From a virus (lineage: Duplodnaviria > Heunggongvirae > Uroviricota > Caudoviricetes): 10,845 nucleotides of DNA. Positions 1 to 10,845 of this stretch are shown here, one piece after another. Position numbers and translations under genes: made by a program. Below the pieces are notes generated by a model. It was not told the origin of the DNA. It ran no database searches and saw only the letters and a program-made list of their open reading frames with translations. The DNA is taken from IMG/VR virus record IMGVR_UViG_2531839579_000019. One strand, written 5' to 3'. Numbering within the stretch: position 1 is the first letter of the stretch; each line of letters starts with the position of its first letter.

Positions 1-1
1 A

Positions 2-208
2 TTTTTATTAGCATCAGAAATTTCAGACAACTATGACAATCTTCCTGAGAAAGTATCCAAGCTTGTTGAAAACTATAAAGGATTTAGATTTAACTCAGAA
101 GCAGAGACAATCAGAAATTTATTACGCTATATAGTCAACACACGGAAATTAAGTGATTTCTCACAAGCACTTTTGAAGATTGAAGAGATAATAAATAATT
201 ACAAATAA
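2..208 (+). CDS. 3' end of an unknown AT-rich cargo gene (5'-truncated by the window edge); C-terminal 68 aa ...LLKIEEIINNYK, stop TAA at 206-208
   Basis: Frame open from the window start to TAA 206-208. Base composition is strongly AT-rich (about 30% GC by my count), unlike the GC-rich P4-like core next to it. Ends 18 bp before the cos sequence. No recognisable motif in the visible tail. Confidence 0.5.
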   Translation, partial: FLLASEISDNYDNLPEKVSKLVENYKGFRFNSEAETIRNLLRYIVNTRKLSDFSQALLKIEEIINNYK

Positions 209-226
209 TTTCGTTCCTAGCGCGCA

Positions 227-245
227 GTGCTTTCCCCGCCTCGCC
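227..245. other. cos: cos site: 19-nt P2/P4-type cohesive-end sequence
   Basis: Sequence gtgctttccccgcctcgcc is the exact reverse complement of GGCGAGGCGGGGAAAGCAC, which I recall as the P2/186/P4 cohesive end. It lies just beyond the psu stop, as in P4. Confidence 0.7.
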
Positions 246-348
246 CGCCCGCTTTGCGGGGCGGTTTTAATGCAGTTGCACTGACACGCTCAGACCGCGC
301 CGGGAATGGCGCGGTTTGCAGAAAATGAGGCAGGGAAACGCATGCAAA

Positions 349-379
349 GCCATGCACCTTATCGATGCATGGCTTTTTT
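349..379. terminator. Rho-independent terminator hairpin between convergent genes
   Basis: Perfect 8-bp stem gccatgca (349-356) / tgcatggc (366-373) with a 9-nt loop, followed by TTTTTT (374-379) on the plus strand. On the minus strand it follows the psu stop but has only a short T tract. Confidence 0.6.
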
Positions 380-409
380 CAGTAAAAACGGGCGGATTTT
401 CGGGGAATT

Positions 410-982
410 TTACACTGACTGACGTGATGCCAGTTGCGCACTTTTACGCGAAAAAATCATGTTCTGCGCAGGGGTGAATTTTTCACGGCTGTCATCCACC
501 GAAGCCACGTCAGGCCTGAATCCGATGGTCGTTAAAATGTCGCTATCCTGTGCGGAATAATTAATTTTTTCACCCTTCGCAAGCCAGGACAGAAGGGCTT
601 CACGCAGGGCATCTGTGGCACGCTGTATGGCACAGTTTCGGGCAATGGCCGTCAGCTCACTGTAGCCCATCAGCTCCGGTGCCAGTGCCGCCGCCAGTGC
701 TGTGCCGTGCTGCTGCATAAAATCATTCAGCCGGTCGCGGATGCTGATGTGCTGAACGGCTTCATGCGAACGAATATAACGACCGGCGGCCTGATTCACC
801 TGCCATTTTCTGACTTCGATAATATTGCGTAATTCGTCCAGGCGACTGACGTTTCTGCCTTCTCCTGACAGAAGCCGCAGATATTCCTGTTCGGCCGCTG
901 CCAGCTCATTTTTGCGTTGCAGCCATGCTGCTTTGTTATTCTGACAGGTGTCAAAGGCCTGCTGTAAGGCTGTGCTTTCCAT
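410..982 (-). CDS. psu: Psu, polarity suppression protein (190 aa)
   Basis: Intact 190-aa ORF starting MESTALQQAFDTCQNNKAAW; the length and N-terminus match my recollection of P4 Psu. It is the last gene of a sid-delta-psu operon and ends next to cos. Confidence 0.85.
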   Translation of the reverse strand: MESTALQQAFDTCQNNKAAWLQRKNELAAAEQEYLRLLSGEGRNVSRLDELRNIIEVRKWQVNQAAGRYIRSHEAVQHISIRDRLNDFMQQHGTALAAALAPELMGYSELTAIARNCAIQRATDALREALLSWLAKGEKINYSAQDSDILTTIGFRPDVASVDDSREKFTPAQNMIFSRKSAQLASRQSV

Positions 983-1055
983 CGTTATCTCTTTCTCATC
1001 ATGCTGAAGAATAAAAATACGGTGTGCGGCGACGGCCGGTGTTAACCGGCAGCCC

Positions 1056-1556
1056 TCATTCCAGACGCAGCGAATATGATTGTGTTTTTAACCGTACTGG
1101 CGGCAGTTCCTGTTTTTCATGCAGGCGTTCTGCCAGTTCGTCCGGCGTGACCGGGCGGACAATGAAACGGTTGATGGTCTGAAGCGTTTTAAACACCAGA
1201 CCACAGCCCGGATCCGTGCACACATAAAAACGCTCGGTGACTTCCTGAGACAGACGCCGCGATGTTCTTGACAGTGCAAGGCCTTTACATCTCCGACAAC
1301 AATATCCGGTAACAAGCATTCTTTTCGGGCGTTTCATACTGCCGGAGGCTGACGTCAGTGAATCGCGGTATCTCTGTTTGCCTGAAATGTATTCCATTCC
1401 TGAATCTTTACTGTCAGAGAAAAAGCTTTCACTCGCTTCAAATGTCGCAGAGCAATAAATATTCCGGCACTGTGCAATCATTATCTTGGTGCCATCGTCC
1501 ATGAAATGTGCGCGACGGGTGTGAGCAACATGTCCACACGACGGGCAGTAAATCAT
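1056..1556 (-). CDS. delta: Delta, Ogr/Delta-family zinc-finger late-gene activator (166 aa)
   Basis: Intact 166-aa ORF with the Ogr-type motif C-P-x-C-x-H...QC-x-N-x-x-CSATF (MIYCPSCGHVAHTRR...AQCRNIYCSATF) and a second Cys-rich half (CCRRC...CTDPGCG), consistent with P4 Delta as a fused Ogr-like dimer. Its ATG overlaps the sid stop (ATGA). Confidence 0.85.
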   Translation of the reverse strand: MIYCPSCGHVAHTRRAHFMDDGTKIMIAQCRNIYCSATFEASESFFSDSKDSGMEYISGKQRYRDSLTSASGSMKRPKRMLVTGYCCRRCKGLALSRTSRRLSQEVTERFYVCTDPGCGLVFKTLQTINRFIVRPVTPDELAERLHEKQELPPVRLKTQSYSLRLE

Positions 1557-2278
1557 GACAGCAGTCCTCTGGCCTTAAGCTCTGCTCCCTGCTGGTCTAT
1601 TTTGTCCTGCCACACCTTGCGCTGTGCCGGTGTGCCTGCCACCTCATAATCCATGTGCGGGAGTGTTGCCGCTGACAGTCCGGTCAGCCGGAGAACCGGC
1701 TCGCCGGTGAGGCTGATTTGCATCTGTTTAATTTTCTGTTCCAGCGATGATTTCACCTGCTGCATGACAGCCTTTTCCGGTGCGACGTAGCCCTGATGGC
1801 CGGTGGTGTTGGCGAGCGGATTTTCCTGTACCAGAATGCTCAGATGCATTGCCCGGACAAGCGCCTCACAGGTTTCATTCAGGGCGTGTTCCAGCTCATG
1901 CTCTGCATACAGACTCAGAGGTGATGATGTGCCTTCCGGTAGGCGGTGGCCGTGCTGTCACACGCCCCTTTCAGGCGTTCCGTTCAAATTCAGCACCACG
2001 GCCAGATTGTCATATTCCTGTACCAGCTCCCGGCGTGCCACGCGCTCAATGTGGCGCTGTTTCAGCTCGTCGCTCAGGACACCACCGGCTGCACGAAAGG
2101 CGTGCGCCAGTCTCAGCGTCTTTCCGTCGGCCTGCGCCAGCGCATTTTTTTCCTGCTCTGCCCGTTCAATGGCCGTACGGTCTCATCCATCAGGCGGGCG
2201 TTCTCAAGATGGCGGCTCTGGCTTTTCCAGTTGTGCCAGTGCGGGTTGCAGATATTCAGGGATGGTGTTGTCAGACAT
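1553..2278 (-). pseudogene. sid: sid (capsid size determination) homolog, interrupted by frameshifts
   Basis: ATG at 2278 is preceded by AGGAG, but the frame stops after 24 codons (TGA at plus 2204-2206). Protein-like sequence continues in alternating frames, with at least four frame changes between about 1914 and 2224 and a second in-frame TGA. The C-terminal 98 aa (1553-1849) is in the starting frame. The 726-nt span is close to the 244-codon P4 sid. Confidence 0.7.
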
Positions 2279-2312
2279 TTTCCGGCTCCTCGTCACTTCA
2301 GGTTAAGAAAAT

Positions 2313-2368
2313 TGTGACGTACACCGGACAACAACACGACGCATTGCAGATGTGCCAGCCCTGACACA
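2313..2368 (-). promoter_or_regulatory. Psid-type late promoter region with two Delta/Ogr-type TGT-N12-ACA dyads
   Basis: Perfect TGT-N12-ACA at 2313-2330 and 2351-2368, centred 43 and 81 bp upstream of the sid ATG and 38 bp apart. This matches the P2/P4 late-promoter arrangement with activator sites near -55 and about -18. Confidence 0.6.
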
Positions 2369-2447
2369 GGAGACTCATCCTCAGACCGGCAAGCCAGGAA
2401 AAGGTCGCAGGAAAAACCGGCTTACTGTTTGTTTTTTTATATTTTAC

Positions 2448-2551
2448 TGTTCACCTCTGTTCACCTTAAGAAAAAAGATAAGTAATACAGTAAGTTAAAG
2501 GGTGAACAATCGCAGTAATGACTGTTCACCGTCTGTTCACCACTGTTCACC
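2448..2551. repeat. ori-like iteron cluster (TGTTCACC octamers)
   Basis: Five direct copies of TGTTCACC (2448, 2458, 2523, 2534, 2544) and one inverted copy (GGTGAACA at 2501), in the divergent region between sid and the rightward operon. The same octamer recurs in the crr-like repeats about 4.8 kb away. Confidence 0.7.
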
Positions 2552-2710
2552 CGTTGATGGGCTTTTTGTGCTGTTTACTACTGTTTGTTTTTATTAATTC
2601 GCCTGAATGAATAAGAAGAAACGATTTGTATTTCACTATAAAAATTACGAATTGCTTTAAGTGGCTTTAAATGACTATATGGTGGAGATGAACAAAAAAC
2701 ACACAGCCAT

Positions 2711-2728
2711 TGTAAGGCTGCCGGAACA
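2711..2728 (+). promoter_or_regulatory. Candidate Delta-binding dyad of a PLL-type late promoter upstream of vis
   Basis: TGT-aaggctgccgga-ACA (TGT-N12-ACA) about 110 bp upstream of the vis ATG. A second, imperfect CTG-N12-ACA lies about 35 bp downstream. Single perfect dyad only, so weak. Confidence 0.35.
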
Positions 2729-2830
2729 AATCCCCCCTGTTGCGTCTGCTGAAAATATTCACAAAATAAAGCGCTACCCGAAGCCGGACGGACTTATCCG
2801 GTGCTGTATGGACATTAACGAGGTAGCCCG

Positions 2831-3097
2831 ATGCAAGCTGTTTTTTCTTCCCCGTCTCCCGCCCCTGTGACGCCACTGATGCCGCTGCCGGACATCACGC
2901 AGGAGCGTTTTTTACGTCTGCCGGAAGTGATGCACCTGTGCGGCCTGTCACGCTCGACCATCTACGAACTCATCCGTAAGGGGGAATTTCCGCCGCAGGT
3001 GAGTCTTGGCGGTAAAAATGTGGCCTGGCTGCACTCTGAAGTCACCGCATGGATGGCCGGACGCATTGCCGGACGCAAACGGGGGTACGACGCATGA
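2831..3097 (+). CDS. vis: Vis/orf88, AlpA-family helix-turn-helix regulator (88 aa)
   Basis: Intact 88-aa ORF with GAGG 6 nt upstream. Contains the AlpA-type HTH signature RLPEV...[14 protein letters not shown]. It is the first gene of the rightward operon, as for P4 orf88. Confidence 0.75.
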
Positions 3098-3132
3098 TGA
3101 TGCCCGCTCTGCAAAAACTCCCTTTTTCTGGC

Positions 3133-3162
3133 TTGCCTTTTTCCGGCATTTGCGGATATAGT
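3133..3162 (+). promoter_or_regulatory. Candidate sigma70 promoter (PLE-like) at the head of the immunity/early leader
   Basis: TTGCCT (3133-3138), 18-bp spacer, TATAGT (3157-3162), immediately downstream of vis where P4 places PLE. Hexamer match only. Confidence 0.4.
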
Positions 3163-3225
3163 TTTTCCGCTGCCGCAAAATCGGCAGCCGGGCGTAGGAA
3201 CCCGTGTAACTCGTCGGCGACATAT

Positions 3226-3247
3226 GACGCGCCATGCGTCTTTTTTT
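3226..3247 (+). terminator. Short hairpin plus T7 tract in the early leader (attenuator/timm-like terminator)
   Basis: Stem gacgc (3226-3230) / gcgtc (3236-3240), 5-nt loop, then TTTTTTT (3241-3247). Sits about 75 nt downstream of the predicted PLE start, where a termination-based immunity mechanism would act. Confidence 0.45.
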
Positions 3248-3675
3248 GTGTCGCAATCAACGCCACAGAGCACCAGATTATGGTGTGGCGTGTGGTTTGC
3301 CGTGCAGGTATGATCCTGTTCGCAATCGCATGTTATGCCACTGAGTCAATGGTAGCTCAGGCGGGGCAGCCTCCGGGCTGGCCGGTTTCCGATAACGCCG
3401 GTATTCTCACCCCCGTCTGGGCTATCGCCATCGAGCGTGAGAACTCCGGCGATAGCGTCATTTACGCTGTTATCGGAGACTGCCTTATGGCTACGACCCT
3501 TACCCCCTCACACCCTGAATTTGTCTTTGTGTTTGCGGCTGTCCGTCGCGCAGACCGTCATCCCCGTATCTGATGCTTCGCACCGTCGCCGGTGATGAAC
3601 GCAGCGCCCGCCGTTCCCTTGTCCGTGACTATGTGCTCTCCCTTGCTGCCCGTCTGCCGGTGGTGGAGGTGTCCC

Positions 3676-3963
3676 GTGCGTAATAAAAAAGCCCCTCAGA
3701 CCGTCTCAGCACGTCATGACGCCCGTGAACACCTCAGCATTGAGGCTTACCATAAGCTCAACCGCGCCAGCGCCGTATCCCAGTTTGTTGGGGGTGATTT
3801 GATTCACCGTGAACTCTCCGGCCTGCATCAGCTCTACATTCCGCATATTTTCAGCTACCTGAATGAAGATATTGATTTTGTGCTGAATGAGCTGAAAGCC
3901 AAAGGCCTGTGCCGCGATTTTCTCGCCCAGCAGAAAGACCGGGGAGACAGGACGCATGTTTGA
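3676..3963 (+). CDS. Epsilon-like small protein (95 aa from GTG 3676; frame is open from 3592)
   Basis: GTG at 3676 is preceded by GGAGG (3665-3669) and gives 95 aa. The stop overlaps the orf151 start. Start choice is uncertain; the alternative at 3592 has no Shine-Dalgarno sequence. Confidence 0.55.
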
Positions 3964-4411
3964 TTTTCCCCAGCCCGGTGAGATTTACCGTTCTGCCGGT
4001 TTTCCCGATGTGGCCGTGGTCGGCATTCTGGAAGACGGTATTCCGTGGGAAATGCCGTACCGCTGCCCGGACATTGTCTGGAACCCGTACCGCCGTAAAT
4101 TCAGTATCCTTGTGCGTATCCTCGCTGACGGGCGCACCACAGACATCCCGCTGGGGCGTTTTCTGCGGGAATTTACCTGTGACCGTCCTGACCTGTTTAA
4201 ACGCAGCCCCGTAAACCGGCATGCGGTACTGAAAGAAATGGCCGGAGACCCGGAATTACAGAAATGGCGGGAGAAATATCTGGATATTTACCCGCAGGAC
4301 ACTGTTCCGGTCAGCCGGGCAGCACCGGTGGCGCGGGAATGGCGGGAAATTCCCCGCACGGAGCCTGACCCGGAAACCACCCCGGATAACAGTTACCGCA
4401 ATTATCTGTAA
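3956..4411 (+). CDS. orf151-like protein (151 aa)
   Basis: Intact 151-aa ORF with GGAG upstream, overlapping the epsilon stop. Size and position match P4 orf151 between epsilon and alpha. Confidence 0.75.
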   Translation: MFDFPQPGEIYRSAGFPDVAVVGILEDGIPWEMPYRCPDIVWNPYRRKFSILVRILADGRTTDIPLGRFLREFTCDRPDLFKRSPVNRHAVLKEMAGDPELQKWREKYLDIYPQDTVPVSRAAPVAREWREIPRTEPDPETTPDNSYRNYL

Positions 4412-4546
4412 TTAAAAAACGACACCCGAAAAATTAAATGTGCGTATTCGCGCAGGGATACGCACGTCTTCAGGAGACGCAGATATGCCTTATCAGTTAA
4501 TGCAACCGGCACGGAATGCAGTCATCTGTCACAGGGAGGAAAGCAA

Positions 4547-4866
4547 ATGAAAACACCCTTACCGCCCGTCTTACGCGCTGCCCTTTACCGTCGCGCTGTC
4601 GCCTGTGCCTGGCTGACCGTGTGCGAACGTCAGCACCGCTACCCGCATCTCACCCTTGATCACTGGAGGCGGCCATCGCCGCTGAGCTGGAAGGCTTTTA
4701 TCTGCGCCAGCACGGTGAGGAAAAAGGGCGTCAGATAGCCTGTGCCCTGCTGGAAGATTTAATGGAATCCGGCCCCCTGAAGGCCGCGCCGTCGCTGTCC
4801 TTTCTCGGGCTGGTTGTGATGGATGAACTCTGTGCCCGTCACATAAAAGCGCCGGTACTGCACTGA
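4547..4866 (+). pseudogene. orf106-like small ORF upstream of alpha, with one apparent 1-nt frameshift
   Basis: ATG 4547 is preceded by GGGAGGA. The frame reads 63 aa, then protein-like sequence continues in another frame from about 4663 ([33 protein letters not shown]...) to TGA 4864-4866. Restoring one base near 4655-4665 would give a continuous 106-codon ORF. Confidence 0.5.
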
Positions 4867-4880
4867 AGGAGAACAACACC

Positions 4881-7210
4881 ATGAAAATGAACGTAACCGC
4901 CACCGTCAGCCATGCGCTCGGCCACTGGCCGCGTATTCTCCCGGCGCTGGGGATTCAGGTGCTGAAAAACCGTCATCAGCCCTGTCCGGTCTGTGGCGGG
5001 AGTGACCGCTTCCGTTTTGATGACAGGGAGGGGCGCGGCACCTGGTACTGCAATCAGTGTGGTGCCGGTGACGGCCTGAAACTGGTTGAAAAGGTGTTTG
5101 GTGTTTCCCCGTCCGACGCGGCCACAAAGGTGGCTGCCGTGACCGGCAGCCTGCCCCCGACTGACCCGGCAGTGACGGCTGCCGCCGGTGCTGAAACAGA
5201 CGCTGCCCGGAAGAACGCCGCCGCACTGGCACAAACCCTGATGGCGAAAACCCGTCCCGGAACCGGTAACGCCTACCTGACCCGCAAGGGCTTTCCCGGC
5301 CGGGAATGCCGGATGCTGACCGGCACACACAGAGCCGGTGGCGTGAGCTGGCGCCCGGTGACCTTGTGGTGCCACTGTATGACGACAGCGGCGAACTGGT
5401 TAACCTTCAGTTAATCAGTGCTGACGGCCGTAAGCGCACCCTGAAAGGCGGACAGGTCAGGGGCACCTGTCACACCCTTGAAGGACAGAATCAGGCCGGA
5501 AAACGTCTGTGGATAGCGGAGGGATACGCGACCGCACTTACCGTCATCACCTGACCGGTGAAACGGTGATGGTGGCGCTTTCTTCCGTGAACCTCCTTTC
5601 TCTGGCCAGCCTTGCCCGGCAGAAGCATCCGGCCTGTCAGATTGTCCTTGCCGCAGACCGTGACCTCAGCGGTGACGGCCAGAAAAAAGCCGCCGCAGCC
5701 GCAGATGCGTGTGAGGGCGTTGTTGCCCTGCCGCCGGTCTTCGGTGACTGGAATGATGCCTTCACGCAGTACGGCGGGGAGGCCACCCGTAAGGCCATTT
5801 ACGATGCCATCCGGCCACCGGCTGAAAGCCCGTTCGACACCATGAGCGAAGCAGAGTTTTCCGCCATGAGTACCAGCGAAAAGGCCATGCGTATCTATGA
5901 GCATTACGGCGAGGCGCTCGCGGTCGATGCCAACGGCCAGCTTCTGTCCCGTTATGAAAATGGTGTCTGGAAGGTGCTGCCGCCACAGGACTTTGCCCGG
6001 GATGTGGCCGGGCTGTTTCAGCGTCTGCGCGCGCCGTTCTCCTCCGGGAAGGTGGCCTCCGTGGTGGACACCCTGAAGCTGATTATTCCGCAGCAGGAAG
6101 CCCCCTCCCGCCGCCTGATTGGCTTTCGTAACGGCGTGCTCGACACGCAGAACGGCACGTTCCACCCGCACAGTCCGTCACACTGGATGCGCACCCTGTG
6201 CGATGTGGATTTCACCCCGCCGGTGGACGGTGAAACGCTGGAACCCACGCCCCCGCGTTCTGGGCTGGCTTGACCGTGCCGCCGGTGGCCGTGCGGAAAA
6301 ACGCGACGTGATTCTGGCCGCACTGTTTATGGTGCTGGCAAACCGCTACGACTGGCAGCTCTTTCTGGAGGTGACCGGTCCCGGCGGCAGCGGCAAAAGT
6401 ATCATGGCCGAAATAGCCACCCTGCTGGCCGGGGAGGATAACGCCACGTCGGCCACCATTGAGACGCTGGAATCCCCGCGTGAACGTGCCGCGTTAACTG
6501 GCTTCTCACTGATACGCCTGCCGGACCAGGAAAAATGGAGCGGCGACGGTGCCGGACTCAAGGCCATCACCGGCGGCGATGCGGTGTCCGTGGACCCGAA
6601 ATACCGGGATGCGTACTCCACGCATATCCCGGCGGTGATTCTGGCCGTGAACAATAACCCGATGCGCTTCACCGACCGCAGCGGCGGCGTGTCACGCCGG
6701 CGGGTGATTATTCACTTCCCGGAACAGATAGCCCCGCAGGAGCGCGACCCGCAGCTTAAGGACAAAATCACCCGCGAGCTGGCGGTCATCGTGCGTCACC
6801 TGATGCAGAAGTTCAGCGACCCGATGCTCGCCCGGTCACTGCTTCAGTCCCAGCAGAACTCAGACGAGGCGCTGAACATCAAACGGGATGCCGACCCGAC
6901 GTTTGATTTTATCGGCTATCTGGAAACCCTGCCGCAGACCAGCGGCATGTATATGGGGAACGCCAGTATCATCCCGCGTAATTACCGTAAATACCTCTAT
7001 CACGCCTATCTGGCCTACATGGAGGCAAACGGCTACCGGAATGTACTCAGTCTGAAAATGTTCGGGCTGGGGCTGCCGGTGATGCTGAAGGAATACGGAC
7101 TGAATTACGAGAAGCGCCATACCAAACAGGGGATACAGACCAACCTGACGCTGAAAGAGGAAAGCTACGGCGACTGGCTGCCAAAATGTGACGACCCTGC
7201 AACAGCCTGA
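4881..7210 (+). pseudogene. alpha: Alpha-type primase/helicase, split into four frame segments by three frameshifts
   Basis: AAGGAGA 8 nt upstream of ATG 4881. Zinc-binding primase N-terminus (CPVCGG...RF...WYCNQCG), a Toprim-like segment (5306-5554), and a helicase part with Walker A GPGGSGKS (6119-7210). Frame changes fall within 5306-5414, 5509-5554 and 6119-6273. Total span 2330 nt, close to the 777-codon P4 alpha. Confidence 0.8.
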
Positions 7211-7226
7211 CCCTCATAACTCATCT

Positions 7227-7251
7227 GACCGGCATCTGCCGGTCTTTTTTT
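7227..7251 (+). terminator. Rho-independent terminator after alpha
   Basis: Stem gaccggc (7227-7233) / gccggtc (7238-7244), loop atct, then TTTTTTT (7245-7251), 17 nt after the alpha stop. Confidence 0.75.
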
Positions 7252-7267
7252 ATCCCTGAATCCCCCG

Positions 7268-7566
7268 AAGGTGAACAATCCACTGTTCACCCTTCACCGT
7301 ATATTCACCCGTTATCACACTGAAATTAAAAGAGAAAAACGAAAGGTGAACAGTGTGAACAATCAAATCAAAAAAAACTTTTTTCTTCCTGAGTGATTTC
7401 AGTGCGGAGGATTAATCACCGGTATGAGTCACACCGGCAGAATGCCGGAGGTGAAGAATCGAATGTTCACCCTTCACCCATTATTCACCACCTATCACTC
7501 TGAAATAAAAGGAGAAAACAGAAAGGTGAACAGTGTGAACAGTTCTTTCGAAAAAAAATTTTTTAT
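7268..7566. repeat. crr-like cis replication region: two ~117-bp direct repeats carrying the iterons
   Basis: Unit 1 (about 7268-7384) and unit 2 (about 7448-7566) are imperfect direct repeats with a 180-bp period. Each carries several TGTTCACC/GGTGAACA motifs and ends in an A-run/T-run. Matches the two-repeat crr downstream of alpha in P4. Confidence 0.7.
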
Positions 7567-7757
7567 GTGGATAAAAGATGCACTGGTTTGGATCCGAGCT
7601 ACGGATCCAAACTTACTGATTAAAAATGATTTAACTTTCCGATTTATTGATGGGCTGAAAATAGATTGGTCAGAAAAACAGTGGGGGCACAAAAGGGGGC
7701 ATATTTCATTGTTGTGTTTTATTATTTGTTTTTTATCATTAACTTATTTTGATGTTT

Positions 7758-7776
7758 GAGTCCGGCCTTCGCACCA
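7758..7776 (+). other. attP: att core resembling the 3' end of tRNA-Leu (leuX), with no tRNA body upstream
   Basis: gagtccggccttcgcacca matches the leuX 3' end GAGTCCGGCCTTCGGCACCA as I recall it, except for one missing G. The sequence upstream (7700-7757) is AT-rich and not tRNA-like. Lies 190 bp upstream of int. Confidence 0.55.
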
Positions 7777-7792
7777 TATAAAGTTTTTTTCA

Positions 7793-7876
7793 AGTCTACT
7801 CACGTCTACTTTAGTCCATAAAAACAGTAAATTAAGCAGGTTTTTTGCTTTTCTTAGTCTGTCCACGTCTACTTAC
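7793..7876. promoter_or_regulatory. Direct repeats between att core and int (candidate integrase arm-type sites / int promoter region)
   Basis: agtctactcacgtctacttt (7793-7812) and agtctgtccacgtctactta (7857-7876) match at 17 of 20 positions, 64 bp apart. Function is inferred from position only. Confidence 0.35.
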
Positions 7877-7965
7877 TTCTATCCACATATACCAACGAAT
7901 GATGGTATAACTGGTGGTATCTTCGGTTCGATTGATTTTGATACCAACAGCGGAGGTATCAACTG

Positions 7966-9216
7966 ATGGCACTTACTGATATCAAAGTTAGGACTACCAA
8001 GCCCTCCGACAAACCTTTCAAACTTACAGATGGGCAGGGTATGCACCTGCTGATCAACCCCAATGGTTCAAAATACTGGCGACTCCAATACCGTTTCGAT
8101 GGCAAACAGAAAGTTTTAGCATTGGGAGTTTATCCAATAGTCTCTCTTGGTGAAGCTCGCAGGAAACGAGATGAGGCCAAAAAGTTGGTATCTGATGGTA
8201 TCGATCCTTCCGAGAAGAAAAAAGCAGACAAGATCGAGCAGAGCGAAGCTCTGACATTCGAGGCTGTCGCAAGGGACTGGCATACTGCCTGTAAAAGGAA
8301 ATGGTCTGATTCCCACAGCGAGAGAGTTCTAAAAAGCATGGAAGATGGTCTCTTTACTGCTATTGGTAAAAGAAAAATATCCGAACTTAATACCAGAGAT
8401 CTTCTTGCCCCTATCAAGGCTGTTGAAGCTTCCGGGCGATTGGAAGTTGCTTCCCGATTACAGCAAAGAACAACGGCGGTAATGAGATATGCTGTCCAGA
8501 ACGGGCTGATAGATTACAACCCTGCTCAGGAGATGGCAGGAGCTATTGCGGTAGCTAAAAGAGTCCACAGGCCAGCTTTGCCATTCGAACGATTCTCAGA
8601 ACTTTTAGAACGAATTGATAGTTTCAAGGGTAGAAAACTCACGAAGTTAGCCGTGAAACTCACATTGCTCATTTTCATTCGTTCAAGTGAACTTAGGTTT
8701 GCTCGTTGGTCAGAGATAGATTTCGACAATGCCATGTGGACTATCCCTGGGGAACGTGAGCCATTGCCAGGGGTCAAACATTCTCATCGAGGCTCAAAAA
8801 TGAAGACCCCACACCTCGTGCCGTTAAGTCGCCAGGCTATAGAACTCCTCAAAGCTATCAAAGAAATCAGCGGTGAATGTGAACTTGTGTTCATTGGTGA
8901 TCATGATTTTAGAAAGCCTATGAGTGAAAACACGGTAAACAAGGCTTTAAGGTCTATGGGCTACGACACTACGGTTGAAGTATGTGGACATGGTTTTCGT
9001 GCGATGGCATGTAGTGCGTTGATCGAATCGGGAAAATGGTCAAGGGATGCTGTTGAACGGCAGATGAGCCACCAAGAGCGAAACTCCGTTCGTGCTGCCT
9101 ACATTCATAAAGCAGAACACCTTGATGAAAGAAGGCTTATGTTGCAGTGGTGGGCTGATTACCTTAATGCCTTGAAAGATAGGTTTATCAGTCCCTTTGA
9201 TTTTACAACAAAGTAG
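7966..9216 (+). CDS. int: P4-type tyrosine integrase (416 aa)
   Basis: GGAGG 9 nt upstream of ATG 7966. P4-family N-terminus (MALTDIKVRTTKP...YWRLQYRF...), catalytic-region H-x-x-R (HGFRAMA) and a tyrosine in RAAYIHKAEHLDERR. Intact. GC is visibly lower than the psu-alpha core. Confidence 0.9.
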   Translation: MALTDIKVRTTKPSDKPFKLTDGQGMHLLINPNGSKYWRLQYRFDGKQKVLALGVYPIVSLGEARRKRDEAKKLVSDGIDPSEKKKADKIEQSEALTFEAVARDWHTACKRKWSDSHSERVLKSMEDGLFTAIGKRKISELNTRDLLAPIKAVEASGRLEVASRLQQRTTAVMRYAVQNGLIDYNPAQEMAGAIAVAKRVHRPALPFERFSELLERIDSFKGRKLTKLAVKLTLLIFIRSSELRFARWSEIDFDNAMWTIPGEREPLPGVKHSHRGSKMKTPHLVPLSRQAIELLKAIKEISGECELVFIGDHDFRKPMSENTVNKALRSMGYDTTVEVCGHGFRAMACSALIESGKWSRDAVERQMSHQERNSVRAAYIHKAEHLDERRLMLQWWADYLNALKDRFISPFDFTTK

Positions 9217-9303
9217 CTTGATCAACGATTAACTATCCACTGGCATAGCCGTGTGATATGATTACAATGGCTATATTTTTAATTTAAATTTAATAGGTAA
9301 AAA

Positions 9304-10443
9304 ATGTCCACAATTAACCCCGCAATTTTTTCTTTTTTCTCTGGTTCAGGATTTCTTGATCTTGGATTTGAAAAAAATGGTTATGAAGTGGTTTTCGTGA
9401 ATGAATACCATGCTCCGTTTATGGATGCATATAAACATTCGAGGAAAAAATTAAATATAGCACCACCTCGTTTTGGGTATGCAGAGTGCAGTATTGAAGA
9501 TGTAGAACATGAAAAAATTAAGTCTTCTATGCTTCAACTTAAAAATGAGGGGCGATTGACTGGATTTATTGGTGGTCCACCATGCCCGGATTTCTCTGTA
9601 GCGGGTAAAAATAAAGGTCGAGATGGTGAAAACGGTCGGCTTTCACAAAGCTATATTGATATCATTCTTGAAATGAAACCAGATTTCTTTCTTTTTGAGA
9701 ATGTTAAAGGTCTATACCGTACCAGTAAACATAGGGAATTTTTTGACCATTTAAAAACTCAATTAGAATCGGTTGGTTATTGTTTGCATGAAAAACTAAT
9801 AAATTCTATTGAATATGGTGCTCCTCAAGATAGGCAACGAATCATATTGATTGGTTTCCTTGATGAAAAATATGCAAGCCAATTCAATTGGGGGCAAAGA
9901 GTCTACCCTGAAAGAACTGCATTTGAATATAAATGGCCGACGACAAACCAATTTTCAGAAAACACTTCTGTTATAAAACCAAAGGGTATCCCAGAAGAGT
10001 TAACAGTAGAGCATTGGTTCAAGAAAAACCAGGTTGATAATCATCCAAATGCAAAGCATGTATTCGCGGCAAGAGCAGGGCTTGCGAGGTTTTTGACTGT
10101 CGAAGAAGGGGATGATAGTAAAAAATCCTATAAAAGGTTGCATAGATGGAGATTTTCACCAACTGCTGCTTACGGTAATAATGAGGTACATTTACATCCT
10201 TATAAACCAAGAAGAATTACTGTTGCCGAAGCATTAGCAATTCAGTCTTTACCAAAAGAATTTGAATTACCTGCTTATATGACTCTGTCTAATATGTTTA
10301 AAACTGTCGGTAACGGTGTACCCTACTTAGCAGCGGCCGGTATTGCCAAATCTATTATAGAGCATTTAGGAATCGAATATGAGAGTAACTGCGGCGAACT
10401 TAGCACAGGCGATTGCCAATCTACCAAGAAACACGCAGTTTAA
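9304..10443 (+). CDS. DNA (cytosine-5)-methyltransferase (379 aa), intact
   Basis: Ordered C5-methyltransferase motifs: motif I-like FSGSGF, motif IV GGPPCPDFSVAG, motif VI FENVKGL, motif VIII QDRQR, motif X TVGNGVP. AT-rich; first gene after int. Confidence 0.85.
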   Translation: MSTINPAIFSFFSGSGFLDLGFEKNGYEVVFVNEYHAPFMDAYKHSRKKLNIAPPRFGYAECSIEDVEHEKIKSSMLQLKNEGRLTGFIGGPPCPDFSVAGKNKGRDGENGRLSQSYIDIILEMKPDFFLFENVKGLYRTSKHREFFDHLKTQLESVGYCLHEKLINSIEYGAPQDRQRIILIGFLDEKYASQFNWGQRVYPERTAFEYKWPTTNQFSENTSVIKPKGIPEELTVEHWFKKNQVDNHPNAKHVFAARAGLARFLTVEEGDDSKKSYKRLHRWRFSPTAAYGNNEVHLHPYKPRRITVAEALAIQSLPKEFELPAYMTLSNMFKTVGNGVPYLAAAGIAKSIIEHLGIEYESNCGELSTGDCQSTKKHAV

Positions 10444-10453
10444 TTATTTAAAT

Positions 10454-10845
10454 GTGCGAAATTCGGGAAGAATCATTGTAACGAATGTTCAACTTCCCGA
10501 AGGCCCAATAGAATTCAAAAGATTCGATCCAAAAAAGGGTGAGACACTGCATAGTTCTAAATCGGAAAGCATCTCCACACAAATGATGTGGAGATTGGCT
10601 AATGCTTTACAGGAAGATGTCCCTGTCAATTTGGATCGTATTTTTGGTGCAAGCTATAATACACGTGCTGTTCTCGAAAGCCTTTTGGCCCATACTCCTG
10701 AGTTTTATTGGTGTAAGCTTGATCGCCTTGAGGTAATGAACACTCAGAAAAATATTAAAAAAGGTCACAAGCACCTTATTTATAGACCAAATGACCCACA
10801 TGAAAATGGTGTAGCAATAGAACATACTACTAATGTTATAATTTC
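10454..10845 (+). CDS. Unknown ORF immediately downstream of the methyltransferase (3'-truncated by the window edge); possible functional partner
   Basis: Frame open from 10442 to the window end, 130 codons visible. Candidate starts are GTG 10454 (10 nt after the methyltransferase stop) or ATG 10583; neither has a clear Shine-Dalgarno sequence. Same strand and composition as the methyltransferase. No diagnostic motif in the visible part. Confidence 0.45.
   Translation, partial: MRNSGRIIVTNVQLPEGPIEFKRFDPKKGETLHSSKSESISTQMMWRLANALQEDVPVNLDRIFGASYNTRAVLESLLAHTPEFYWCKLDRLEVMNTQKNIKKGHKHLIYRPNDPHENGVAIEHTTNVII

Follow-up and report, generated by a model that had tools for sequence, protein, structure and literature searches.

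The stretch between ORF88/alpA and epsilon in this element raises the question of whether it houses an RNA-based immunity switch of the P4 type and, if so, where the immunity RNA lies, what it pairs with and how the small overlapping reading frames downstream are to be understood. The original prediction, made from the letters of the sequence, had proposed a P4-type immunity leader at 3133-3590 and had named a covariance-model search for the CI/C4 RNA and an alignment to the P4 leader as ways to check it. All coordinates refer to the window, which is the whole stretch of DNA that was analysed (10,845 bp) and corresponds to the entire contig AQBU01000082.1 of the draft assembly GCA_000358575.2.

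Both checks were positive. Positions 3050-3750 aligned with the phage-plasmid P4 (X51522, 8811-8101) at 92% identity over 701 nt and with E. coli P4-like prophages (RefSeq, complete genomes) at 98.6% identity; a match to this interval was present in 1473 of 5426 complete E. coli genomes. The gene order is that of P4, with psu, delta and sid on the minus strand followed by ORF88/alpA, the immunity leader (cI-kil-eta), epsilon, orf151, cnr and alpha, and the RefSeq relatives carry the same annotation. Three Rfam models scored above their gathering scores on the plus strand: C4 antisense RNA (RF01695; 76.2 bits against 45, 3345-3432, model positions 1-87 of 87), isrK (RF01394; 71.9 bits against 50, 3169-3246, model positions 1-77 of 77) and, as a marginal pass, c4-a1b1 (RF03163; 49.1 bits against 46.7, 3156-3208). 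As a control, P4 itself was matched by the C4 and isrK models exactly at the aligned positions, the C4 match falling on the P4 CI gene. The covariance-model matches, the P4 alignment and the shared gene order all support the proposal, and 3133-3683 is very probably the immunity and early-leader region of a P4-like satellite prophage, operating in the P4 fashion. Such a switch in an E. coli P4-like prophage is an already known system, and its known mechanism is left unchanged by the present results. IsrK and C4 have been described as structural homologues of P4 seqA and CI RNA (Barquist et al. PMC3632133; Hershko-Shalev et al. PMC4825925), and CI pairs with seqA and seqC to bring about premature termination (PMC3632133, PMC4825925). 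By analogy with P4, the first distal gene silenced by the switch would be epsilon:

3676-3963, plus strand: epsilon (derepression protein), starting at GTG 3676, with a Pfam Derepression match of 170 bits and the P4 annotation

The leader begins with a promoter and a short terminated unit, made up of the following features:

3133-3162, plus strand: PLE-type sigma-70 promoter, with a -35 hexamer TTGCCT (3133-3138), an 18-nt spacer and a -10 hexamer TATAGT (3157-3162), 9/12 matches
3169-3247, plus strand: leader or IsrK-type short transcript ("seqA RNA" in the P4 literature), from the isrK and c4-a1b1 matches and the folds
3169-3188, plus strand: hairpin 1, GCTGCCG/CGGCAGC
3189-3192 with 3201-3204, plus strand: stem of hairpin 2, with its loop at 3193-3200
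3226-3247, plus strand: intrinsic terminator t1, with a six-pair stem GACGCG/TGCGTC (3226-3240), loop CCA and a T7 tract (3241-3247)

Between 2800 and 4000, on both strands, PLE was the only promoter-like site and t1, which starts 64 nt past the -10, the only terminator-like site. Shuffled sequences are expected to give 0.4 and 1.1 such sites, respectively, and the t1 pattern by itself is not significant. Because both patterns are statistically weak when taken alone, their weight comes from homology and conservation. PLE is base-for-base the same as in P4, X02534 marks a "consensus -10" that agrees with its -10, and neither hexamer varies among 69 unique related sequences. The terminator is conserved among the relatives, with a single variable position at the loop-closing 3235, and its stem coincides with the terminator stem of the isrK model and is located where P4 t1 lies. 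In P4, t1 is reportedly situated between PLE and cI. The TTGCCT-18-TATAGT promoter and the hairpin with a T7 tract about 65 nt after it, both called in the original prediction, were thus borne out; the second hairpin that it described (gctgccg...cggcagc) exists as well, at 3169-3188 rather than one position earlier at 3168-3187. From its sequence, PLE is predicted to be a constitutive sigma-70 promoter of the P4 type, and the spacing together with the start of the isrK model would place the transcription start near 3169.

An anti-terminator under CI control, in which binding to seqA would free t1, was also considered. The minimum-free-energy fold of the window's leader does not contain the t1 hairpin, and 3190-3198 pairs instead with the 3' arm of t1. 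As a general mechanism the anti-terminator was rejected: the t1 hairpin had a probability of at least 0.9 in the leaders of P4, CH423 and L013, whether seqA was masked or not, and the alternative fold was seen only in leaders that carry the GTAGGAA allele of the upstream target.

Downstream of t1 lies the RNA that the leader is expected to deliver, with these parts:

3351-3430, plus strand: CI RNA (C4 antisense RNA family), the immunity factor, within a C4 match at 3345-3432; its mature ends are those that we infer
3351-3366 with 3411-3426, plus strand: closing stem of CI, 16 bp
3367-3380, plus strand: CI hairpin A
3381-3402, plus strand: CI hairpin B, with its loop at 3387-3396
3403-3410, plus strand: 3' single strand of CI, 8 nt
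3427-3430, plus strand: 3' GCCA of CI, after the long acceptor-like stem

The minimum-free-energy fold of CI (-47.4 kcal/mol, z -5.05) is identical to the centroid, and none of 200 shuffles was equally stable. The stems are compensated in homologues from Serratia and Buttiauxella. The original prediction had expected the immunity RNA at 3160-3250. That interval holds the upstream target seqA and the terminator t1, and the C4 model places CI at about 3351-3430, still within the 3133-3590 leader that had been proposed. In P4, CI is said to be processed out of the leader, and its maturation involves RNase P and PNPase. Published work identifies the immunity factor as an RNA (PMC4825925, PMC5499578) and lists P4 CI RNA as an RNase P substrate (PMC5499578).

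To compare CI with its targets, IMG/VR was scanned for conserved CI stems with free loops, and P4 and loci from E. coli genomes were added, for a total of 79 related loci. The DNA patterns built around these stems yielded 35 loci at first and later 69, and an epsilon protein scan of species-representative genomes gave 7. Duplex energies were computed from the exposed CI segments, as whole-length RNA duplex prediction gave unrealistic full-length duplexes. In the alignment, the differences between the window and P4 are clustered in short blocks. CI exposes two segments, each of which has a complement both upstream (seqA) and downstream (seqC), so that each pairing site has three members:

Site 1, CI member: 3404-3410, plus strand, second pairing segment of CI in its 3' single strand, TTCTCAC
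Site 1, upstream member: 3194-3200, plus strand, seqA hairpin-2 loop, GTAGGAA; the window's own CI needs GTGAGAA, making this target non-cognate
Site 1, downstream member: 3437-3443, plus strand, seqC, GTGAGAA, cognate to CI 3404-3410
Site 2, CI member: 3389-3396, plus strand, seqB core in the hairpin-B loop of CI, CCGATAAC (P4 equivalent CCTGTGAA)
Site 2, upstream member: 3210-3217, plus strand, seqA core, CTCGTCGG, a chimera of the CTCGAAGG and GTTATCGG alleles
Site 2, downstream member: 3469-3478, plus strand, with the seqC core GTTATCGG at 3469-3476, cognate to CI 3389-3396

In the window, CI and seqC are joined by perfect matches of 7 nt and 9 nt (duplex -35.2 kcal/mol), and site 2 of seqC overlaps the kil Shine-Dalgarno sequence (GGAG 3475-3478, with the kil ATG at 3487). 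Across the related loci, the site-1 match between CI and seqC was 7 nt long in 79 of 79, and the site-2 match was 7-9 nt in 77 of 79. On the upstream side, site 1 was a perfect 7-nt match in 75/77 loci, the exceptions being the window and L062, and site 2 matched over 7-8 nt in 72/77. Three alleles were found at site 1 (GTGAGAA, GTGGAAA and GTAGGAA) and at least five at site 2, in at least nine combinations. The CI complement varies together with the target allele, giving a three-way covariation between CI, seqA and seqC, and elements from Serratia and Buttiauxella follow the same pairing logic with further alleles. This covariation provides direct comparative evidence for the model of RNA-RNA pairing in trans. 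Even with the threshold relaxed to E<=1, the c4-a1b1 model gave no match at the downstream target, and the putative seqC is drawn entirely from complementarity and covariation.

The covariation implies that several heteroimmune groups may exist among P4-like elements. The window carries the allele pair CCGATAAC + TTCTCAC, whereas P4 carries CCTGTGAA + TTCTCAC; since the CI/seqC specificity allele differs, we expect the element and P4 to be heteroimmune. A wider reading, which we offer tentatively and consider rather doubtful, is that the two sites, whose alleles combine freely in the survey, form a modular RNA "address" that defines many mutually heteroimmune P4-like groups, with recombinants uncoupling seqA from CI and seqC. 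If so, seqA recombinants would lose t1 autoregulation or would partly obey the CI of another co-resident satellite, which would amount to satellite cross-talk in one cell. In any case, the alleles surveyed can be set out as a short table of the immunity specificities predicted for P4-like satellites, which lends itself to testing.

These elements can be assembled into a proposed course of events. Constitutive transcription from PLE (3133-3162) would initiate the leader at about 3169, and part of the transcripts would end at t1 (3226-3247) as an IsrK-type RNA of about 79 nt. The read-through RNA would contain CI (~3351-3430), whose 5' end would be cut by RNase P and whose 3' end would be formed by trimming. 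In mature CI, CCGAUAAC in the loop of hairpin B (3389-3396) and UUCUCAC in the 3' single strand (3404-3410) would be exposed and would pair in trans with nascent leader RNA, at a two-part target. At the downstream target, GUGAGAA (3437-3443) and GUUAUCGG (3469-3476) lie over the kil ribosome-binding site, and their pairing with CI would cause premature termination just downstream and would also block kil translation. The untranslated C-rich tract would then be exposed to Rho (timm); a C-rich, G-poor tract at about 3470-3530, with a GC skew of -0.4 to -0.46, is the candidate Rho entry site. With termination and blocked kil translation, the epsilon and alpha replication genes would stay off, which would constitute immunity. 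At the upstream target, pairing with seqA would normally let CI raise t1 termination and so regulate itself.

The P4 homology, the promoter, t1, the CI fold, the model matches, the two-site complementarity and the covariation come from this analysis; CI processing, termination at t4 and timm, and autoregulation are carried over from the P4 literature and would apply here by analogy. In P4, seqC pairing reportedly leads to t4 termination, to a block of kil translation and to Rho-dependent termination at timm, and seqA pairing is said to enhance t1 termination, giving CI autoregulation. Maintenance of immunity reportedly requires one target, and its establishment requires both.

The small frames between CI and epsilon had been taken in the original prediction as possible kil/eta-like genes. 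Both exist as described, one running from ATG 3280 to TGA 3573 and the other a 36-codon ORF at 3573-3683 that overlaps the epsilon start. The assignment to kil/eta was correct, as judged from the Icd-like profile and the eta frame; their treatment as two separate genes was not, with one profile split across them by a 1-nt deletion. The two frames concerned are:

3487-3683, plus strand: kil (Icd-like, 65 aa in relatives), split here into 3487-3573 (28 aa) and 3573-3683 (36 aa)
3094-3573, plus strand: eta reading frame, beginning at the stop of ORF88, extending across the promoter, seqA, CI and seqC, and ending together with kil

The frame of ATG 3280 is that of a longer ORF (3049/3094 to 3573), which contains it and has its stop at TGA 3571-3573. 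The overlap of the 36-codon ORF with the epsilon start (GTG 3676) is 8 nt, as it is in P4. Positions 1-17 of the NCBIfam phage_ICD_like profile fall in 3487-3573 and positions 19-48 in 3573-3683. In intact relatives a 65-aa Kil is nested at the end of a 196-aa eta frame, and RefSeq calls the 196-aa protein "Icd-like". At the junction, the relatives and P4 read TG[T/C]ATG (T in 41, C in 36), and the window is without that base after 3572. The missing base creates the TGA at 3571-3573 and turns the native Met codon into the start of the 36-codon ORF. An intact nested kil/eta frame ending 8 nt into epsilon is not present in the window, being broken after 3572. The two small ORFs are therefore the two parts of a single nested gene, kil/eta (Icd-like), which a 1-nt deletion divides. 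This deletion was absent from 77 of 77 relatives checked and is private to the contig.

The frameshift at 3572 is probably an assembly artefact. Further private 1-nt deletions in the contig break sid, cnr and alpha, and of 15 private deletions, 9 coincide with columns that are polymorphic among 32 relatives, compared with a 5.3% background (p = 1.3e-8; 11-fold enriched). Column 3572 is itself divided evenly among these relatives (T 16, C 16), and other public assemblies have contig ends or N-gaps exactly at 3572/3573. An E. coli genome can have as many as five P4-like copies. The concentration of deletions on SNP columns points to a consensus of collapsed paralogous copies rather than to real deletions, and the gap most likely arose as an error in the consensus of a draft assembly that had collapsed several P4-like copies. 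The listing of the contig for 3 samples would weaken the artefact reading if these are independent assemblies. Without a check of the reads, frameshifts in this contig should not be taken as biology.

The upstream target poses a related problem. The longest contiguous matches between the window's CI and its own seqA are 3 nt at site 1 and 4 nt at site 2, and the duplex energy is -17.3 kcal/mol, compared with -24 to -27.5 kcal/mol for cognate seqA pairs and a mean of -16.8 +/- 3.3 for non-cognate ones. The GTAGGAA loop and the first half of the core fit the O157-type allele set (GTAGGAA with CTCGAAGG), and from 3214 on the sequence is of the CH423 type. The allele pattern of the contig changes repeatedly within 300 nt (3196-3213, 3214-3474, 3479-3480 and 3495). 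No exact copy of the seqA 43-mer at 3186-3228 was found in 5426 complete E. coli genomes; the 108 E. coli genomes that match it at 95.3% have CTCGAAGG together with a CI that fits it. A search for a CI allele that would be cognate to the seqA of the window (CCGACGAG) found none. Mismatched seqA occurs in 5/77 loci (the window, L043, L062, L021 and L026), and given the four others, real seqA recombinants may exist elsewhere. In the window, the chimera may share its cause, assembly error, with the kil/eta gap. Given the assembly evidence and several allele switches in 300 nt, the window's seqA may be either a real recombinant or a consensus mosaic. If the chimera is real, the P4 literature would predict that t1 autoregulation is lost and that maintenance of immunity is kept. 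The pattern in which seqC is always matched to CI and seqA sometimes is not fits P4 genetics, with the downstream site essential.

Taken at face value, as assembled, the contig has a seqA unmatched to CI and a broken kil/eta gene, leaving the circuit partly impaired. If the contig is accurate, the element would be a decaying (cryptic) P4-like prophage with its immunity circuit partly disabled, a reading that we consider possible but rather unlikely. A true kil/eta frameshift would remove the toxic Kil and uncouple translation about 110 nt before epsilon, and recombination with another immunity type would have swapped seqA, leaving no boost to t1 and repression through seqC alone. The broken sid, cnr and alpha genes would agree with such decay, as would the closest relative (L026, 99.4% identity), which has some of the same deletions and degenerate CI-target matches. 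The non-cognate seqA in other assemblies suggests that such recombinants may occur, the contig is recorded in 3 samples, and pseudogenes are common in P4-like elements (PMC8628076). The private deletions, however, are enriched on SNP columns in a way that real deletions would not be, the break at 3572 is the exact point at which other assemblies end or place N-gaps, and none of the 77 relatives has the deletion. The seqA 43-mer that is missing from every complete E. coli genome and the repeated allele switches within 300 nt likewise argue against decay, and the collapse of several P4-like copies into one draft consensus remains the preferred explanation.

The short transcript from PLE to t1 (3169-3247) could also be more than a by-product of attenuation. 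By analogy with IsrK of Salmonella Gifsy-1, it might be a trans-acting regulatory RNA that binds the long leader or CI and stimulates the translation of the small ORF downstream and of the anti-repressor, which we judge improbable. The leader of the contig is not complementary to its own CI, so that any sponging of CI would be weak, and P4 genetics reportedly treats seqA as a cis target. The isrK model is nevertheless matched end to end at 71.9 bits, and the layout is parallel, running from a short RNA to a C4-like RNA, a small ORF and a derepressor. IsrK has a dual role as small RNA and messenger RNA, and the C4-like STnc1160 downstream of it is complementary to IsrK (PMC4825925); S. Typhi requires IsrK-like elements that lie in P4-like prophages (PMC3632133).

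The remaining question is whether the eta frame upstream of kil encodes a protein. The historical "ash/cI" ORF of P4 (137 aa, annotated in X02534) lies in the eta frame and begins at ATG 3280, and Pfam Phage_ASH matches the frame at 80.7 bits. Variable sites in 3169-3486 are spread over the three codon positions as 24/25/27, compared with 6/2/14 in kil, 4/3/13 in epsilon and 11/5/25 in alpA. The eta frame upstream of kil therefore shows no sign of protein-level selection and evolves as RNA, and with no third-position bias the Phage_ASH match would largely reflect conserved RNA elements. That the immunity factor is a protein made from the ATG 3280 ORF, which is annotated in GenBank X51522 as well as X02534 and has the Pfam match just given, is extremely unlikely and was rejected on the codon-position test and on the finding that variation sits mainly in the pairing sites of the RNA, which covary at three places, in a stretch that fits structured-RNA models and for which the literature names an RNA as the factor (PMC4825925, PMC5499578). 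Annotation of this region should label the CI RNA (C4), the seqA/IsrK leader, t1, seqC and one kil/eta gene, and not two hypothetical ORFs.

The closest known system is the P4 immunity region itself (PLE, seqA, t1, cI/CI RNA, seqC and kil/eta; X51522 ~8704-8168), which the window resembles at 92% identity and in gene order. Both have the identical promoter, the same terminator and the same CI fold, with a two-part target on either side of CI, the downstream one overlapping the kil ribosome-binding site. They differ in the CI/seqC specificity allele (CCGATAAC/GTTATCGG in the window, CCTGTGAA/TTCACAGG in P4) and in a 9-nt deletion in the spacer before CI, and, as assembled, in the non-cognate seqA and the 1-nt gap that splits kil/eta.

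The immI region of P1/P7 (c4 antisense RNA, a1b1/a2b2 targets, icd and ant) belongs to the same RNA family (Rfam C4 and c4-a1b1). It shares with the window a processed leader RNA, two exposed segments and two-part targets upstream and downstream, the latter covering the ribosome-binding site of an Icd-like gene. In the window, however, the distal genes are epsilon (helper derepression) and alpha (replication primase) and not the Ant antirepressor. The region thus functions like immI and is no member of it, with an Icd-like gene present and Ant absent. Unlike P1/P7 immI, P4-type control uses direct RNA-dependent termination (t1 and t4) besides polarity.

The isrK/STnc1160/orf45/anrP region of Salmonella Gifsy-1 has the same succession of a terminated IsrK-type RNA, a C4-like processed RNA, a small ORF and a derepressor-type gene (PMC4825925), although its host element is a lambdoid prophage and the window is a satellite. 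Gifsy-1 IsrK activates translation of the long isoform in trans, and Hfq binding and this trans-activation are known only for Salmonella Gifsy-1 IsrK (PMC4825925); for P4-like elements such a role is only conjectured, by analogy. In the linear plasmid-prophages N15, phiKO2 and PY54, the leader and CI segments align to the window at 77-80% identity; C4/IsrK-like systems have been noted in N15 (PMC3632133). Here the RNA elements alone are held in common (14-30% of the query), and the neighbouring genes differ.

Immunity alleles in these elements are combinatorial. In the 79 related loci compared (within L001-L083), three alleles of site 1 and at least five of site 2, the two exposed CI RNA segments with their complements in seqA and seqC, occurred in at least nine combinations. 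No description of this diversity was found in the open-access survey of P4-like elements PMC8628076, in which the immunity RNA falls outside the coverage. The closest relative of the window is locus L026 (IMGVR_UViG_2537561692_000012), which is 99.4% identical over window positions 220-7564, and approximately 20 of the 47 differences between the two fall within three specificity blocks (3196-3213, 3387-3394 and 3459-3479). The CI loop of L026, CCTATGAC, is a poor match to both of its own targets, and the L026 seqA is cognate to the CI RNA of the window.

The promoter, seqA, CI RNA and seqC are all overlapped by the eta frame (3094-3486), which is matched by Pfam PF10554, Phage_ASH (‘Ash protein family’). 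No codon-position signature of protein selection was seen in this frame, and what the family picks up is probably a set of conserved RNA and DNA elements, not a folded protein. The beginning of kil contains a C-rich, G-poor tract (3470-3530, GC skew as low as -0.46), a plausible Rho utilisation site that would correspond to the Rho-dependent terminator timm known from P4.

The window (1-10845) is a complete stand-alone contig, AQBU01000082.1, of the draft assembly GCA_000358575.2; the contig covers nearly the entire P4-like element and is on record for three samples. Multi-copy elements in short-read assemblies typically end up as separate contigs. In other public assemblies (loci L086, L088 and L090-L094), the ATG at 3573 is the exact point where contigs begin or scaffold N-gaps stop. 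Column 3572/3573 is thus a recurrent assembly breakpoint, at which the variable immunity block gives way to a long exact repeat.

Compared with P4 and E. coli relatives, the window carries private single-nucleotide deletions at 1918-2221, 2603, 4659, 5354, 5544, 6241 and 6263, which break sid, cnr/DUF5375 and the alpha primase-helicase gene, leaving the following:

1553-1849, minus strand: open reading frame of the sid remnant, 98 aa remaining
4881-5414; 5509-6273; 6119/6230-7210: pieces of the alpha primase-helicase, split by private deletions

The private deletions are strongly enriched on columns that are polymorphic among relatives (9/15 versus 5.3%, p=1.3e-8), which suggests that they are errors in a consensus sequence into which several repeat copies were collapsed.

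At the end of the element, a tyrosine integrase (7966-9216) is followed by a cargo gene for a DNA cytosine methyltransferase (9304-10443, Pfam DNA_methylase), an arrangement common to the window and E. coli strain 504237 (L004). In a near-identical P4-like element of E. coli CH423 (L003, 966-2990), GapS4a and GapS4b genes adjoin the integrase, which illustrates how cargo varies at the hotspot of these satellites.

Within window 3149-3456, segments of the leader and of CI align with the linear plasmid-prophages phiKO2 and PY54, as well as with several Klebsiella phages, at 77-84% identity. As judged from these alignments, the seqA/CI module is evidently not confined to satellites.
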